Assembly (NCBI GenBank): GCA_016873335.1
Contig: VGXN01000002.1
Coordinates: forward strand, 4,785 to 68,784
Origin: Phycisphaerae bacterium
GTDB taxonomy: Bacteria > Planctomycetota > Phycisphaerae > Phycisphaerales > SM1A02
Direction of reading: 5' to 3'
DNA: 64,000 nt
The notes below the pieces were generated by a model. That model saw only the letters and a list, made by a program, of their open reading frames with translations, ran no database searches and was not told where the DNA came from. A program made the translations under genes and the position numbers. Numbering within the stretch: the stretch's first letter is position 1; each line of letters opens with the position of its first letter. Shown piece by piece: positions 2,349 to 31,627 of this stretch.

Positions 2349-2701
2349 TCACCGCGAGCGAACTGCTCGTGCGCCCAGCTCCACGCCGCGACCGTGCGAG
2401 GAAAGCCGACGGTGTTCATCGCGAGAAGGACCGCCTGCTCGACCTCTGCGTGCGTTGCTCCGTGCTGCATCGCTCGGCGAACATGGCTGCGGAGCGCGGA
2501 CTCGAGCCCAGCCCCGACGCAGATTCCGATCTTGATGAGGGACAGCGTCTTGGCGTCGAGCGGGCCGGCCGCCACGACGGCTGAGGCGATGTGCTCATGC
2601 GCGCGGCCGAGGTCCGGGTACTTCTTCACGAAGGCCTTGTATGTCGCGGGGACCTTGCTGCTCTTCTTCGCGGGTGACTTTTTTTGACGTGGTGCGCTCA
2701 T
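2345..2701 (-). CDS. Carboxymuconolactone decarboxylase (AhpD-like) family protein
   Basis: The internal start MSAPRQKK... was chosen because its ATG overlaps the stop of the upstream ORF (ATGA at 2698-2701). The sequence ...LDAKTLSLIKIGICVGAGLESALRSHVRRAMQHGATHAEVEQAVLLAMNTVGFP... resembles the CMD-domain helical pattern. The upstream 94 codons of the track ORF are Arg-rich and overlap the neighbouring gene. Confidence 0.6.
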   Translation of the reverse strand: MSAPRQKKSPAKKSSKVPATYKAFVKKYPDLGRAHEHIASAVVAAGPLDAKTLSLIKIGICVGAGLESALRSHVRRAMQHGATHAEVEQAVLLAMNTVGFPRTVAAWSWAHEQFARGD

Positions 2702-3183
2702 GGGTGTTTGCTCCCGCAGGCCAGCGTGGCTGAAGATCTGTTGGACGGATCGTTCACTGTGTCCGCGACCGAACAAAGAATCGCGTAGTACTCCTCGACA
2801 TCGATGCCGAGCAGCGTGGCTCCGAAGAGTTCGGCCTCGACATGAGACGCGACCTCGCCGTAGTTCACAGAGGGAATGTAGTACGCGATCAACAACGGGA
2901 TCAGATCGTCGACGTTTTCGAACATCGGGTGAATGAACAGGCAGAAGCCGTCCGACGGGTGCTCGCCCAGGCTCTCCACACACGCGAATTCGCCGGGCTG
3001 GAGCGGCTCGGCATCGAATCGGACGCCGAGCGGGTAGCGCACCACGGAACGATCCTCGAGCAGCCGCATCATCCCGCCACGATCCATGGGACCACCGCGG
3101 CGCAGACGCGCGTCCATCGCCTTCGCGACGATGTGGTCACGAAGGGACTGCTGTGCCTCTTCGGCGGTGGGGCGTTGATTCAT
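2698..3183 (-). CDS. Hypothetical protein (161 aa), translationally coupled between NrfD-like and CMD genes
   Basis: This is a clean ORF with ATGA overlaps at both ends (3180-3183 and 2698-2701). Its amino-acid composition is balanced rather than Arg/Ala-biased. I recognise no motif. Confidence 0.55.
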   Translation of the reverse strand: MNQRPTAEEAQQSLRDHIVAKAMDARLRRGGPMDRGGMMRLLEDRSVVRYPLGVRFDAEPLQPGEFACVESLGEHPSDGFCLFIHPMFENVDDLIPLLIAYYIPSVNYGEVASHVEAELFGATLLGIDVEEYYAILCSVADTVNDPSNRSSATLACGSKHP

Positions 3184-10751: not shown

Positions 10752-10754
10752 GAA

Positions 10755-10826
10755 CTCCCCCAGCTGGACTCGAACCAGCAACCTGGCGGTTAACAGCCGC
10801 CCGCTCTACCATTGAGCTATAGGGGA
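10755..10826 (-). tRNA. tRNA-Asn (GTT)
   Basis: The minus-strand sequence TCCCCTATAGCTCAATGGTAGAGCGGGCGGCTGTTAACCGCCAGGTTGCTGGTTCGAGTCCAGCTGGGGGAG folds as a cloverleaf. The acceptor stem is TCCCCTA/TGGGGGA, the anticodon stem is GGCGG/CCGCC with loop CTGTTAA, and the T-arm is GCTGG-TTCGAGT-CCAGC. CCA is not encoded. Confidence 0.9.
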
Positions 10827-10926
10827 ATGGAACGAAAATAGTAACGGGGTAGCCCTCATCGTCAAGCGAAGAGGGTTTCTGCAAAGTTCTCAGACCGAAT
10901 TCGCGATAACCACTTACCTGCCCCGC

Positions 10927-14492: not shown

Positions 14493-15806
14493 TCAGTGCG
14501 GCAGCGGGAATCGACCGCAGAAACTTCGGATTTCCTGCCGAACGCTCTCGCAGACCGTGGCGTCGCCCTTCGATCCCATCACGCGGTCGAGCCACTCCGC
14601 AACGAGCGCCATCTCCTTCTCGCCGAGTCCGCGCGTGGTGAGCGCTGGTGTCCCAAGCCGCAGCCCGCTCGTCACCATCGGTGGACGCGGATCGTTCGGG
14701 ATGCCGTTCTTGTTGCAGATGATGCCCGCGCGTTCGAGCCACTTCTCCGCATCGGCGCCGGTCAGATCCGCGCTGCGCGCGCGCAGATCCACGAGCATCA
14801 GATGGTTGTCCGTCCCACCCGTGCAGAGGCGGTAGCCGCGCTGCATCAATCCGGCGGCAAGCGCCTGCGCGTTCCGAACCACCTGCGCGCAGTACTCGGC
14901 GAACTCCGGGCGCAGCGCCTCGCCAAATGCGAGTGCCTTCGCGGCGATGATGTGCATCAGCGGCCCGCCCTGCGAACCTGGGAAGACCTTGCGGTCGATC
15001 TTCGTGGCGAGTTCCTCGTCGTTGGTGAGCACGAGTCCACCGCGCGGACCGCGAAGCGTCTTGTGGGTGGTCGTGGTCACGACATGCGCATGCGGGAATG
15101 GCGATGGGTGAACGCCCGTCGCACAGAGCCCGGCGATGTGCGCGATGTCCGCCATCAGGAAGGCGCCCACCTCATCCGCGATCGCGCGGAATCGCGCGAA
15201 GTCGATCGTGCGCGGGTACGCGGAGAATCCGCAGATGATGAGCTTCGGCTTGTGCGTTCTCGCGAGCGCGGCAATCTCGTCGTAGTCGAGGCGCTCGGTC
15301 TCCGGATGCAATCCGTAGTCCACGATCTTGTAGAAGGTTCCACTGAAGTTTGGCTTCAGTCCATGGCTGAGATGACCGCCCGCCTTGATCGGCAGGCTGA
15401 GCACGGTGTCGCCTGGATTCATCAGCGCCATGAACGCGGCGATGTTCGCGTTCGCGCCGCAGTGCGGCTGGACGTTCGCAAAGTGGCAGCCAAACAGTTG
15501 CTTGGCGCGTGTGCGGGCGAGATCTTCGACCTGATCATGGAACTCGCAGCCGCCGTAGTAGCGCTTGCCTGGGTAGCCCTCCGCGTACTTGTTCGTCATC
15601 CAACTGCCCGCCGCGTGCATCACCGCCGCACTGACGTGATTTTCACTCGCGATGAGTTCGAGCGTGTGCTCTTGGCGATCGCGTTCACCCGCGAGCATGC
15701 GGGCAAGATCAGGATCACTTGAACGCACCAGGTCAAGCAGCCGCCCGCCCGCGTCGGATTGGTCTGTCGCGGCGTGTGAATGCGTGCGCGCTGGTGCAGT
15801 CGTCAT
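14493..15806 (-). CDS. glyA: Serine hydroxymethyltransferase
   Basis: [15 protein letters not shown]...[17 protein letters not shown]...[16 protein letters not shown] is the SHMT signature, including the PLP lysine. Confidence 0.95.
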
Positions 15807-15850
15807 GCGAGCATCGTAGCCCGTTCGACCGCGATATCGTGCCGCGTCCG

Positions 15851-16414
15851 ATGGAATCCCTGTGCGTGCCGATGTGCGGTGCCGTGCTTCAACTGGAGGC
15901 GCATGGTGGTGCGCTTCGCACCCATTGGCGCGCGACCGCAGGGCGACGCTTCCTTCGACCGCGCCGCGGCGATGATGCGCGGCTGCTTCGCGCTGGAGCG
16001 GCTCTGGTCAGGCGCTGGCAAGGGGGTGGGCCTGTCGACGCGCGCGCGCTTGCATCGCTGCTGCCTGCAGCGGGCGCGTTCACAACCGCGTGCTGGCTGG
16101 CCGCAGCGCGAATCCCACGCGGCTCGACCTGCACCTACACGCAGTTGGCTGAACGCGCGGGTCGCCCCGGTGCAGCGCGCGCAGCCGCTTCAGCGATGGC
16201 GCGCAATCCGCTGCCTCCTTTGGTCCCCTGCCACCGCGTTGTTGCGTGCGGCGGCATCGGCGGTTTCTGCGGTATCGCACCGCAGCGGCAGGGGCACTGG
16301 GCGATCCGGCTGAAGTGCGCGCTGCTGGAGCACGAGCAAGCGGATGCCTCATACACTTCCCCCCCCGCACCACGGGCAACAGGTCGAGCGCAACAACGAA
16401 GGAGTCACGCATGA
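15851..16414 (+). CDS. ogt: Methylated-DNA--protein-cysteine methyltransferase
   Basis: [37 protein letters not shown] carries the PCHR active-site motif. The stop overlaps the ugd ATG (ATGA at 16411-16414). The start M45 was chosen to clear glyA. Confidence 0.75.
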
Positions 16415-18357
16415 AGGTCACGATGGTTGGAACGGGTTACGTTGGCTTGGTCACGGGCGCGTGCTTCGCCGACATGGGCAACACGGTCACATGTCTCGAT
16501 GTGGATGCGTCCAAGATCGAAACGCTCAAGCGCGGCGAGAGTCCGATCTACGAACCTGGACTCGCTGAGATGATCCAGCGGAACGCCCACGCGCATCGCC
16601 TCCACTTCACGACGGACAAGTGGGAGGCGTACCGAGATGCGCGCATCATCTTCATCTGCGTTGGAACGCCAAGCAGCGATGATGGAAGCGCCGATCTGAA
16701 GTATGTGCTTCGAGTGGCAGAGGACATTGCTGATGCGATCGAGCGCGTCGGTTCGGGCGGCGAACCAAAGACGGTCGTTGTGAAGAGCACCGTGCCCGTT
16801 GGAACGAGCCACAAGGTGCGCGACGCGATCCGTGCGAAGACGAAGGTGCCCTTCCATATCGCGGACAACCCCGAGTTTCTGAAGGAAGGCGATGCCATCC
16901 ATGACTTCATGAAGCCCGACCGCGTGGTGTGCGGTGTCGACGATTCCAAAACGGGTGAACTGATGCGCACGCTGTACGACCCGTTTGTGCGCCAAGGCAA
17001 TCCGATCTTCGTGATGGATGTTCGCAGCGCAGAGATGGTGAAGTACGCAAGCAATGCGATGCTCGCCTGCAAGATCTCGTTCATCAATGAGATCGCAAAC
17101 TTGTGTGAGCGAACAGGTGCGGACATCAACTCTGTCCGTGAGGGCATGTGCTCAGACAAGCGCATCGGCAACCAGTTCCTCTACCCCGGTCTCGGCTATG
17201 GCGGCAGTTGCCTTCGTGGATCGCATCTTGTGCGTATCCGAGATGATCATGGCGAGAGCACGCTCCGACTTGACGAACTCTTTACCGGCGCGGGCGATGG
17301 CGTTCATCCGCTGCCTGGCATCGAGGTGCTCTCGTGGTCACCAACTGACCGACCCGCTGCGTTCCGCCCTGCCGAAGGAATCAGTCGGCGCGAGTACCGA
17401 GGGCGCGGCGTGGAGATAACGACTTCATGCGGCACCACGATCGTGATGACTGCGGACCACCCCGTTGTCGTGCTGCGCCGCGGCGCCGAACCACTGGTGT
17501 TCCCGGCAAGCGCCGTGTGTGTGGGCGATCAGTTGCCTCATGTGGCTGGAGCCACTGCAGGCATCTGGACTCGGGAAAGTGCTGATTCGGATGCCATTTC
17601 GGATGGCGGTTCAGGCATCCGCCGCTCTGGTGGTGCTGCCCTGTTGCTCCCCAGCACGGCCGCCCCCGCCCCCCACGGAGGCAGCATTTCGGCTGTTTCT
17701 GGAGGAATTGGCTCGGTAACCGTGGTTTCGGTCCACCAGGTCGATCTCGCAGAACCAGTCTTTTCCGTCGAAGTTCCGGGCGCGCATACCTTCGTGACCT
17801 GTGGCGGGGTGGTCGTTCACAACTGCTTCCCAAAGGACACCCAGGCGGTTGTATCGATGGGGCGCGAACTGGGATTCCCATGCAAACTGAATGCCGCGGT
17901 TCATGAAGTGAACCAAGATCAGCGCCAGCACTTCTGGTCCAAAGTGGAACAGGAGATTGGGTCGGATCTTCGCGGTAAGTCATTGGCATTCTGGGGGGTT
18001 GCGTTCAAGCCAAAGACCGATGACATACGCGAAGCACCGAGCCTGACCCTGATGCAGCGGGCGATCAAGGCGGGTGCAAAGGTGCGGGCGTATGACCCTG
18101 TGGCCCTCGAGCATCTTTCCCATGAGATGCCCGCCGTCAGCCGCGCGGAGGACATGTACAGCGCCCTCGATGGGGCGGAGGCGCTCATCATTTGTACCGA
18201 GTGGGCTGAGTTCCGCGCACCCGACTTCGCGGAGATCCGAAAGCGGCTTGCGCGCCCGATGATTTTTGATGGGCGAAACCTCTTCCGACGGTCGCAAATG
18301 CAGGAGGCGGGGTTTATCTACGCCTCCGTTGGACGCGCCACCGTGCGCCCAAAGTGA
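16411..18357 (+). CDS. ugd: UDP-glucose 6-dehydrogenase precursor containing a mini-intein
   Basis: aaggag lies upstream. The N-terminal Rossmann motif is [20 protein letters not shown]. The sequence ...DNPEFLKEG...KYASNAMLACKISFINEIANLCE...YPGLGYGGS is followed by the 205-aa insert, then CFPKD...FWGVAFKPKTDDIREAP...IFDGRN. Once the insert is removed, the 443-aa product is a full-length Ugd. Confidence 0.9.
   Translation: MKVTMVGTGYVGLVTGACFADMGNTVTCLDVDASKIETLKRGESPIYEPGLAEMIQRNAHAHRLHFTTDKWEAYRDARIIFICVGTPSSDDGSADLKYVLRVAEDIADAIERVGSGGEPKTVVVKSTVPVGTSHKVRDAIRAKTKVPFHIADNPEFLKEGDAIHDFMKPDRVVCGVDDSKTGELMRTLYDPFVRQGNPIFVMDVRSAEMVKYASNAMLACKISFINEIANLCERTGADINSVREGMCSDKRIGNQFLYPGLGYGGSCLRGSHLVRIRDDHGESTLRLDELFTGAGDGVHPLPGIEVLSWSPTDRPAAFRPAEGISRREYRGRGVEITTSCGTTIVMTADHPVVVLRRGAEPLVFPASAVCVGDQLPHVAGATAGIWTRESADSDAISDGGSGIRRSGGAALLLPSTAAPAPHGGSISAVSGGIGSVTVVSVHQVDLAEPVFSVEVPGAHTFVTCGGVVVHNCFPKDTQAVVSMGRELGFPCKLNAAVHEVNQDQRQHFWSKVEQEIGSDLRGKSLAFWGVAFKPKTDDIREAPSLTLMQRAIKAGAKVRAYDPVALEHLSHEMPAVSRAEDMYSALDGAEALIICTEWAEFRAPDFAEIRKRLARPMIFDGRNLFRRSQMQEAGFIYASVGRATVRPK
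17209..17823 (+). mobile_element. Mini-intein (205 aa, no visible homing-endonuclease domain) in ugd
   Basis: It starts with Cys (CLRGSHLVRI, block A). Block B is IVMTADHPVVV (TxxH). The centre is a Gly/Ser/Ala-rich linker. Blocks F/G are VFSVEVPGAHTFVTCGGVVVHN, ending in His-Asn, and the next residue is Cys (+1) of CFPKD. Confidence 0.85.
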
Positions 18358-18529
18358 TCCCCAAACGCTCACCGACCGATCTGAAACATCGGAAAATCAT
18401 GCACTTTTTGGTCTGCGCGCCTTGCGGCGAGGTGGCCAAATGGTCTACATTCCCCCCCGTCGCACGCTGTGCGGCTGGGAGCGAGACCAGTTTCTCGGCA
18501 ACGATTGTCTTAGAAAGGACAGTGCAAAG

Positions 18530-18922
18530 ATGGCAACAATGACCAAGAAGTCGCCCAAGAAGTGGGCGTCAAAGACCACGAAGACCACGAAGAAGACCTT
18601 CAAGCCCACGACCACGACCAAGCAGCGTTCGCGCAGCCAGGTCATCGGTGAACTCGCCGCAGCGAGCGAACTGAAGCGTGGCACCGTGAAGGAGATCTTC
18701 GAAAACCTCACGACGATCATCGGCACCGATCTCGGCAGCCGTGGTCCTGGCGTGTTCTCCTTCTTCGGTCTTGCGAAGTTCAAGACCGTGAAGAAGCCCG
18801 CCACCAAGGAGCGAACCGGCGTGAACCCATTCACGGGTGAGACGCAGGTGTTCAAGGCGAAGCCAGCGAGCAAGAAGGTCCGCATCCGCTCGACCAAGAC
18901 GCTCAACGCCCTCGTCAGCTGA
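18530..18922 (+). CDS. HU/IHF-family DNA-binding protein with Lys/Thr-rich N-terminal extension
   Basis: The core ...RSQVIGELAAASELKRGTVKEIFENLTTIIGTDL...GVFSFFGLAKFKTVKKPATKERTGVNPFTGETQVFKAKPASKKVRIRSTKTLNALV fits the HU fold pattern (R.GRNP.TGE.i.i.a). It is preceded by MATMTKKSPKKWASKTTKTTKKTFKPTTTTKQ. Confidence 0.75.
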   Translation: MATMTKKSPKKWASKTTKTTKKTFKPTTTTKQRSRSQVIGELAAASELKRGTVKEIFENLTTIIGTDLGSRGPGVFSFFGLAKFKTVKKPATKERTGVNPFTGETQVFKAKPASKKVRIRSTKTLNALVS

Positions 18923-31554: not shown

Positions 31555-31627
31555 GGGGCGTTAGCTCAATTGGGAGAGCGCCGCCTTTGCAAGGCGGAGG
31601 TTATCGGTTCGACCCCGATACGCTCCA
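31555..31627 (+). tRNA. tRNA-Ala (TGC)
   Basis: GGGGCGTTAGCTCAATTGGGAGAGCGCCGCCTTTGCAAGGCGGAGGTTATCGGTTCGACCCCGATACGCTCCA. The acceptor stem has the G3:U70 Ala identity pair, the anticodon loop is TTTGCAA, and the T-arm is TCGG-TTCGACC-CCGA. CCA is not encoded. Confidence 0.9.

Follow-up and report, generated by a model that had tools for sequence, protein, structure and literature searches.

Why does a ugd gene of a Phycisphaerae bacterium run to 648 codons when its insert-free orthologues encode proteins of 443 amino acids (aa)? The gene lies in a stretch of 64,000 nucleotides (nt) of contig VGXN01000002.1 (assembly GCA_016873335.1), here called the window, and all positions given below count from the first letter of that stretch. 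It encodes a UDP-glucose 6-dehydrogenase (Ugd) that is interrupted by an in-frame insert of 205 residues (17209-17823, + strand), and this insert is very probably a class-1 mini-intein of the 'udp' allele, placed directly before the catalytic Cys of the enzyme. An earlier, sequence-only reading of the window had already proposed a mini-intein at this point. That it is genuine is supported by its motifs, by homology, by a predicted HINT fold, by the pattern of selection and by orthologues with an empty site or a full-length intein at the same position.

The precursor gene occupies 16411-18357 on the + strand (648 codons and a stop codon at 18355-18357) and specifies a protein with a computed mass of ~70.0 kDa. 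It is enclosed in an open reading frame (ORF) of 703 codons (16246-18357, +), in which the sensible start is the ATG at 16411, with an AAGGAG Shine-Dalgarno-like motif 7 nt to its 5' side. The N-extein (16411-17208, +; residues 1-266) ends in …LYPGLGYGGS, and the C-extein (17824-18357, +) comprises 177 residues, CFPKD…TVRPK, together with the stop codon. That the frame is overlong, and that the excess lies between GYGGS and CFPKD, had been claimed from the letters, and the boundaries proved exact to the base. The codon at 17824-17826 (+) encodes Cys+1, which would serve as the splice-junction nucleophile and, after splicing, as the catalytic Cys of GGSCFPKD.

In translation the insert reads CLRGSHLVRIRD…TFVTCGGVVVHN, that is CLRGSH…IVMTADHP…AHTFVTCGGVVVHN with VVVHN at its end, flanked by …LYPGLGYGGS and CFPKDTQ. 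It extends from Cys1 to His204-Asn205 and has a mass of 20,994 Da. Its N-terminal splicing lobe (17209-17559, +; intein residues 1-117) holds block A as C1-L-x-G4 and block B as T81-x-x-H84 (17449-17460), the latter within IVMTADHP. The C-terminal splicing lobe (17695-17823, +; intein residues 163-205) holds block F as VFSVEVPGAHTFVT and block G as GGVVVHN, and aligns with blocks F and G of the Npu DnaB and Pyrococcus horikoshii (Pho) RadA inteins. Between the lobes stands a Gly/Ser/Ala-rich linker of 45 residues, predicted to be disordered (17560-17694, +; intein residues 118-162), which occupies the position that a LAGLIDADG homing-endonuclease domain (PF14528) takes in the related proteins P0007-P0009. 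The TxxH motif with T81 and H84 and the low-complexity middle are thus both present as first described, and the insert is likewise free of endonuclease blocks: no Pfam match to a LAGLIDADG, HNH or other endonuclease domain was obtained in it even at E <= 1, which makes it a mini-intein. An antisense ORF of 202 codons (17381-17989, - strand) spans the linker; because the linker evolves neutrally with indels of variable length, this ORF is almost certainly an artefact of high GC content and no gene.

The host protein itself is readily recognised. It shows the three-domain architecture and the GGxCxxKD catalytic motif of these enzymes, with strong matches to PF03721, PF00984 and PF03720, and it reaches 438.6 bits with the nucleotide-sugar dehydrogenase model TIGR03026 (NCBIfam; cut-off 189.8). 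The 648-aa precursor falls below the cut-off of the TuaD equivalog model (482.7 bits against 700), presumably because the insert is present. In the Pfam comparison the central PF00984 domain is split by the insert, and it is matched over profile positions 1-93 of 94 once the 205 residues are excised in silico. The excised product of 443 aa aligns without gaps across GYGGSCFPKD to solved UDP-glucose dehydrogenases, among them 3gg2 (E=8.5e-131) and the Burkholderia structures 2y0c-e, so the expectation that deletion would restore the Ugd motif is borne out. In human UGDH, Cys276 is established as the covalent nucleophile, with thiohemiacetal and thioester intermediates (PMC3265891), and conservation of the motif points to Cys+1 of the window protein as its equivalent. 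As the insertion lies immediately before the catalytic Cys, the +1 splice nucleophile and the enzyme nucleophile would be one and the same residue. No second ugd and no further intein was found within the 64-kb window.

Several independent lines connect the insert to inteins. The hidden Markov model (HMM) of the intein C-terminal region, TIGR01443, matches above its cut-off (21-23 bits against 15.6), and a sequence search of the PDB with the insert returned weak matches to inteins only (Pho RadA and Mja KlbA). In an alignment of 15 mini-inteins, in which identity to the window intein is only 26-34% outside the clade, no variation occurs at C1 and G4 of block A, T81, H84 and P85 of block B, V184, S186, E188 and T194 of block F, and G200, H204 and N205 of block G. 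Cys is the first residue in all 102 extracted inteins, and a terminal HN and the TxxHP motif are each present in 101. An AlphaFold2 model built on the alignment of the 15 mini-inteins is all-β, with a mean predicted local distance difference test score (pLDDT) of 79.7; values exceed 90 over most of residues 1-117 and over 163-205, and fall below 50 over 118-162. In a Foldseek comparison of this model with the PDB the top 50 matches were inteins or HINT domains only, the best being the Pho RadA intein 4e2t (E=8e-11; template modelling scores 0.67/0.79). The insert is thus clearly predicted to adopt a HINT fold. In addition, the insert recurs at the same site in independent JGI, ENA and NCBI assemblies, and it is therefore neither a chance product nor an assembly artefact.

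A search with the whole protein revealed three kinds of close relative, all in Phycisphaerales metagenome assemblies. Those with a mini-intein (P0001-P0006) are 632-660 aa long and have exteins 93-99% identical to those of the window. A second kind (P0007-P0009; 914-936 aa) carries a full-length intein of 471-490 aa at the same point, with a match to PF14528 (56.9 bits), an endonuclease region of ~285 residues, and two LAGLIDADG-type motifs, LGLYLAEGH and LLSGMWHGDGS, both recognised by eye. The third kind (P0010 and P0013) is 443 aa long, like the predicted spliced product, and has GYGGS and CFPKD contiguous, with extein identities to the window of 83.5% and 81.9%, respectively. Comparison of the spliced product with intein-less Ugd, as suggested in the sequence-only reading, therefore finds the same uninterrupted motif in natural orthologues.

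All three states share one gene neighbourhood, SHMT - ogt - ugd - HU - SIS-domain protein - DPPIV peptidase, with the mini-intein at loci L001-L004, the full LAGLIDADG intein at L005 (P0007) and the empty site at L006 (P0013), where the sequence reads GGCGGCAGT/TGCTTTCCAAAGGAC (here and below a slash marks the point of insertion). Extein identities are 81.5% between the window and the full-intein P0007, 83.5% between the window and the empty-site P0010, and 87.6% between P0007 and P0010, so that the states are interleaved. The nearest inteins to that of the window outside the mini-inteins are those of P0007-P0009, with identities of 45-52% in the N-lobe and 55-57% in the C-lobe. Empty, full-intein and mini-intein states at one syntenic site represent a classic homing cycle, in which an endonuclease-bearing intein invades an empty site and its endonuclease then decays to leave a mini-intein (PMC4071816). 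A tblastn search for carriage of the intein by plasmids or phages gave no match in the plasmid or phage collection.

The full-length inteins show variation of their own. Within the P0007 cluster, whose proteins were grouped at 90% identity, a 12-residue tandem duplication, ALGRLDATTVEQ, occurs in one or two copies in the endonuclease-proximal region of the intein, and the copy number separates P0177, P0178 and P0181 from P0007, P0179 and P0180. This polymorphism is ongoing indel turnover in the full-length intein. P0182 of the same cluster (780 aa) was considered as a case of endonuclease deletion in progress and was set aside as merely a C-terminally aberrant or truncated gene call.

Selection on the six orthologous mini-intein genes was estimated by the Nei-Gojobori method as the ratio of nonsynonymous to synonymous divergence (dN/dS). 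The ratio was 0.01-0.07 for the exteins (0.01-0.05 for the N-extein and 0.02-0.07 for the C-extein), 0.05-0.16 for the intein N-lobe, 0.10-0.38 for the C-lobe and 0.24-1.38 for the linker, and in-frame indels in the linker let the total intein length range from 189 to 217 aa. Exteins and splicing lobes are under purifying selection and the linker is neutral. This is the pattern of constraint to be expected if Ugd is needed and can be made only by splicing, and purifying selection on exteins and lobes suggests that the precursor does splice. Extein dS among the mini-intein genes is ~0.4-1.0; a synonymous divergence of up to ~1 means that vertical inheritance of the mini-intein goes back a long way. 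Composition and synonymous divergence of the intein differ from those of its host: third-position GC is 0.62 in the intein vs 0.74 and 0.71 in the exteins, overall GC is 0.63 vs 0.58-0.60, and intein dS tends to lie above extein dS for the same genome pairs. Such a contrast is compatible with weaker codon selection on the intein or with a different history.

Some observations weigh against identifying the insert as a splicing mini-intein. Recognition by intein HMMs, which the sequence-only reading had put forward as a check, stood only in part, as two of the three curated models remain under their trusted cut-offs for the insert: PF14890 (Intein_splicing) gives 26-30.3 bits against 35.8 (E=4.4e-7) and TIGR01445 (N-terminal region) 18-20 bits against 24.5 (E=1e-3), and TIGR01443 alone exceeds its threshold. 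The Asp that the Npu DnaB, Ssp DnaB and Pho RadA inteins have at position 4 of block F is replaced by Ser here. A word-indexed protein search with the intein alone gave no match at E <= 0.001. Finally, Smith-Waterman comparison of the linker with endonuclease sequence, judged against 500 shuffles, yielded z-scores of -0.6 to 2.6, mostly ~0, for an endonuclease remnant.

These points can be set beside others. The related proteins P0121, P0128 and P0157 exceed the gathering score of PF14890 (40.9-54 bits). The Ser of block F does not vary anywhere in the allele, which marks it as characteristic of the family, not as a lesion. P0001-P0006 are present in the word-indexed database, and P0001, with an intein 98-100% identical, was recovered from it with the full-length query; the empty result for the intein alone thus looks like a limitation of the tool. 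An exact-sequence look-up of the window protein returned no record, the closest being P0001 at 98%. In the case of the endonuclease, no significant remnant is detectable in the linker, and for this reason we infer its decay in situ, from synteny and from the nearest-relative status of P0007-P0009, rather than see it directly. A MAFFT pairing of 'DAISDGGSGIRRSGG…AALL' under 'GMWHGDGSWSKVRGG…SALL' was tried as a relic of LAGLIDADG and rejected, as it was not significant in the shuffle test.

Taken as a splicing mini-intein, the insert would act in the following way. The precursor of ~70 kDa would be translated first and would be catalytically dead, because both its active-site motif and its central domain are interrupted. 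Splicing would begin with an N-S acyl shift at Cys1, helped by Thr81 and His84 of block B, and would continue with trans-thioesterification by Cys+1 to a branched intermediate. Cyclisation of Asn205 with the assistance of His204 would follow, and an S-N shift would re-form the peptide bond, releasing a 443-aa Ugd of 49.0 kDa with an intact GYGGSCFPKD and a free intein of 21.0 kDa. The ancestor was presumably a full LAGLIDADG intein, of the type that related Phycisphaerales still have at this syntenic locus. Its endonuclease domain would since have been lost, with the 45-residue, disordered and neutrally drifting linker left in its place, and the mini-intein would now be fixed and vertically inherited in one clade of Phycisphaerales. 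Imprecise loss of the intein or failed splicing would destroy Ugd, and selection would for this reason keep the intein competent for splicing. It can soundly be concluded that Ugd activity depends absolutely on splicing, assuming that the genome has no second ugd elsewhere.

Could the host, alternatively, have put the intein to use? The mini-intein might be a domesticated conditional switch, for instance a redox-sensitive one, in which the thiols of Cys1 and Cys+1 or of C74, C104 and C198 gate the supply of UDP-glucuronate. Both splice junctions are Cys, and disulfides of active-site Cys residues make other inteins sensitive to oxidation (PMC4031507, citing Callahan 2011, Chen 2012 and Nicastri 2013). 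All 11 sequences of the mini-intein clade have C74 and C198, the full-length P0007-P0009 have neither, and the mini-intein has persisted through the extein divergence described above. However, imprecise loss at a catalytic site would be lethal to the gene, and this cost accounts fully for both the persistence and the purifying selection; Cys1/Cys+1 is the chemistry of the whole allele, as the uniform Cys start of the extracted inteins shows; and the clade-specific Cys residues may reflect phylogenetic inertia among exteins that are 93-99% identical. According to a 2014 review, conditional splicing of physiological relevance had yet to be demonstrated at that time (PMC4031507). Redox-conditional splicing is thus a speculation, a possibility by analogy, and a domesticated switch appears quite unlikely. 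A shade more doubtful still is the specific proposal that the endonuclease-free intein has been retained as a reversible oxidation or metal gate on UDP-glucuronate synthesis, acting through Cys1, Cys+1, C74, C104 and C198; if it were true, the supply of precursors for envelope polysaccharides would respond to redox stress.

The opposite possibility, that the insert is a splicing-dead relic and this ugd copy non-functional, pseudogenised at the protein level, is very improbable. It would fit the sub-threshold scores with PF14890 and TIGR01445, the Ser in place of Asp at position 4 of block F, and the loss of the endonuclease with neutral drift of the linker. Against this, the low dN/dS of exteins (0.01-0.07) and lobes (0.05-0.38) holds across six orthologues with dS up to ~1, and every canonical catalytic residue is kept and invariant. 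The frame is intact in all examined assemblies except for the C-terminally aberrant P0182, the linker indels are all in frame, and no compensating second ugd exists within the window. A dead relic is strongly disfavoured because enzyme and splicing machinery are constrained and the linker is not. Least probable of all, and effectively refuted, is the reading of the insert as a structured domain other than an intein, or as a bacterial intein-like (BIL) domain, that is retained in the mature enzyme or only cleaves. BIL and Hedgehog HINT folds do appear at Foldseek ranks 23, 27, 32 and 37, but true inteins make up all of the best structural matches. The insert interrupts the invariant active-site motif GGSCFPKD and is entirely missing from orthologues with 83.5% and 81.9% extein identity; it has Cys1, TxxH, a His-Asn C-terminus and Cys+1, and its homologues bear a LAGLIDADG homing endonuclease.

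The genes around ugd belong to the conserved neighbourhood. Directly upstream lies an ogt-like gene (15719-16414, +; start codon uncertain) that encodes a methylated-DNA-protein-cysteine methyltransferase DNA-binding domain (PF01035, E=8.6e-24). Its TGA stop overlaps the ATG of ugd by 4 nt (ATGA), which suggests translational coupling of the two genes; at L005, the full-intein relative, the ogt and ugd gene calls also overlap by 4 nt (2390-3004 and 3001-). Directly 3' of ugd, in a position kept in all syntenic loci, is a gene for an HU-type DNA-binding protein (18524-18922, +; PF00216, E=4e-10) with a Lys/Thr-rich N-terminal extension of ~35 residues (MATMTKKSPKKWASKTTKTTKKTFKPTTTTKQRSRS…). 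The only matches above Rfam gathering thresholds in the window are a tRNA-Asn(GTT) at 10754-10827 (-) and a tRNA-Ala(TGC) at 31555-31627 (+).

How far does this allele extend beyond Phycisphaerales? An exhaustive HMMER search with the intein alone matched 57 cluster representatives, of which at least 16 show both junctions, either as GxGGS/C…H[NQ]/C[FL]PKD or, in WecC-type paralogues, as GGH/C…HN/CI[PS]xDP; several others are fragments with one junction, and a few are PurL proteins. GTDB was scanned with one genome per species and with a search pattern biased toward block G of the window intein, so that all counts are lower bounds. Relatives were found in 105 species, and 80 loci were kept, 61 bacterial and 19 from Halobacteria. 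The bacterial loci fall in Actinomycetota (35), Myxococcota (8), Planctomycetota (5), Dormibacterota (5), Chloroflexota (3), Gemmatimonadota (2), Acidobacteriota (1), Thermotoga (1) and Eisenbacteria (1), and the halobacterial ones include cultured Halorubrum, Halobacterium salinarum DSM 3754, Natronomonas, Halovenus and Halorutilus. Junctions of the form GxGGS/C…HN/CFPKD were present at 67 of the 80 loci and the WecC-type form GGH/C…HN/CIPxDP at 2. In size the GTDB inteins comprise 15 mini-inteins (167-239 aa), 8 of intermediate length (320-381 aa) and 46 full-length ones (449-509 aa). An intein at the Ugd site is therefore not rare, as it occurs in at least 67 GTDB species representatives of bacteria and Halobacteria, in addition to the WecC-type paralogues.

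Homologous inteins were also encountered in PurL (FGAM synthase, with AIRS, AIRS_C and FGAR-AT_linker domains), namely in P0128, P0157, P0170 and at locus L079. Here the site reads …HYGN/C…HN/CVGVPTVGGE, and the similarity is E ~1e-9 to 1e-4. One intein lineage thus occupies unrelated host proteins.

For annotation, the gene should be described as an intein-containing UDP-glucose 6-dehydrogenase, neither as a 648-aa fusion nor as a hypothetical protein. For intein biology, the locus offers a clean natural series of states at one syntenic site and a measurable contrast in selection between lobes and linker. From a practical perspective, the mini-intein is compact, has Cys1/Cys+1 junctions, comes from a mesophile-like bacterium and tolerates a floppy loop of 45 residues, and it could modestly extend the toolbox of protein engineering. 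The current understanding of inteins is unchanged by it; its value lies in a correct annotation and in a tidy example of the homing cycle.

Among known systems, the redox-sensitive inteins (PMC4031507) resemble that of the window in that Cys at both junctions makes a Cys1-Cys+1 disulfide chemically possible, a likeness in residue identity only. The closest solved structure is the Pho RadA mini-intein (4e2t, 4e2u, 2lqm), which has the HINT fold and aligns in blocks B, F and G. It shares 18-19% identity with the window intein, has Asp instead of Ser at position 4 of block F, and differs in host and in its +1 residue. Like that of the window, it interrupts a catalytic motif of its host, in this case the P-loop.

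The full-length inteins of P0007-P0009 (L005) have the same locus, synteny and insertion point as the window intein. They keep the endonuclease region of ~285 residues, to which the disordered 45-residue linker of the window shows no detectable similarity. The WecC-type inteins (UDP-ManNAc dehydrogenase-like hosts) are homologous to that of the window (for instance P0121, E=6e-17) and occupy the same structural site before the homologous catalytic Cys, but in a paralogous host and with GGH/C…HN/CIPxDP junctions. They are very common: the 120 best matches listed in a profile search are all 911-970 aa long, and with a single exception they have a precomputed Pfam domain, either intein or LAGLIDADG. 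The JGI label of these proteins is '…dehydrogenase/intein/homing endonuclease', and none of the 120 metagenomic clusters listed belongs to Methanocaldococcus.

The intein known from the same host family is the 'udp' allele in UDP-glucose 6-dehydrogenase, named by Soucy et al. in 2014 and described in Halobacteria, with 7 halobacterial, 2 bacterial and 6 other archaeal members at that time (PMC4071816). UDP-GlcDH had been mentioned as an intein host in a 2010 review (PMC2874743), and Novikova et al. (2016) counted 10 UDP-GlcDH inteins from Euryarchaeota (PMC4760082). Besides Halobacteria, the allele is recorded from M. jannaschii (NP_248048.1) and other Methanococci, from Thermococcus gammatolerans, and from Dictyoglomus and a Fervidibacteria bacterium (PMC4071816, PMC4760082). 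NP_248048.1 is the InBase 'Mja UDP-GD' intein, MJ1054, and its placement at the same site as the intein of the window is taken from the literature. The M. jannaschii sequence was not among the matches of the HMMER search, of the GTDB scan or of the profile search with WecC-type proteins. The current annotation of MJ1054 is presumably that of a WecC-type enzyme; its intein would then lie at the paralogous GGH/C site.

The halobacterial members share the Cys1/Cys+1 chemistry and the block F Ser with the window intein, and their junctions read GWGGS/C…HN/CFPKD in Halorubrum (L033, L058), H. salinarum DSM 3754 (L076) and Natronomonas (L035), among others. They match it at E 1e-12 to 2e-7 in tblastn, with 31-42% identity in the N-lobe. 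While the halobacterial and most other members found are 449-509 aa long and carry LAGLIDADG, the window intein is a mini-intein of 205 aa, and its phylum, Planctomycetota (here Phycisphaerales), is not listed for the allele in PMC4071816 or PMC4760082. By the GTDB scan, the spread of the 'udp' allele through bacteria goes far beyond the two cases listed from them in 2014. The intein of the window is a new Planctomycetota mini-intein of an already catalogued and widespread allele, and as such it would not surprise a specialist.

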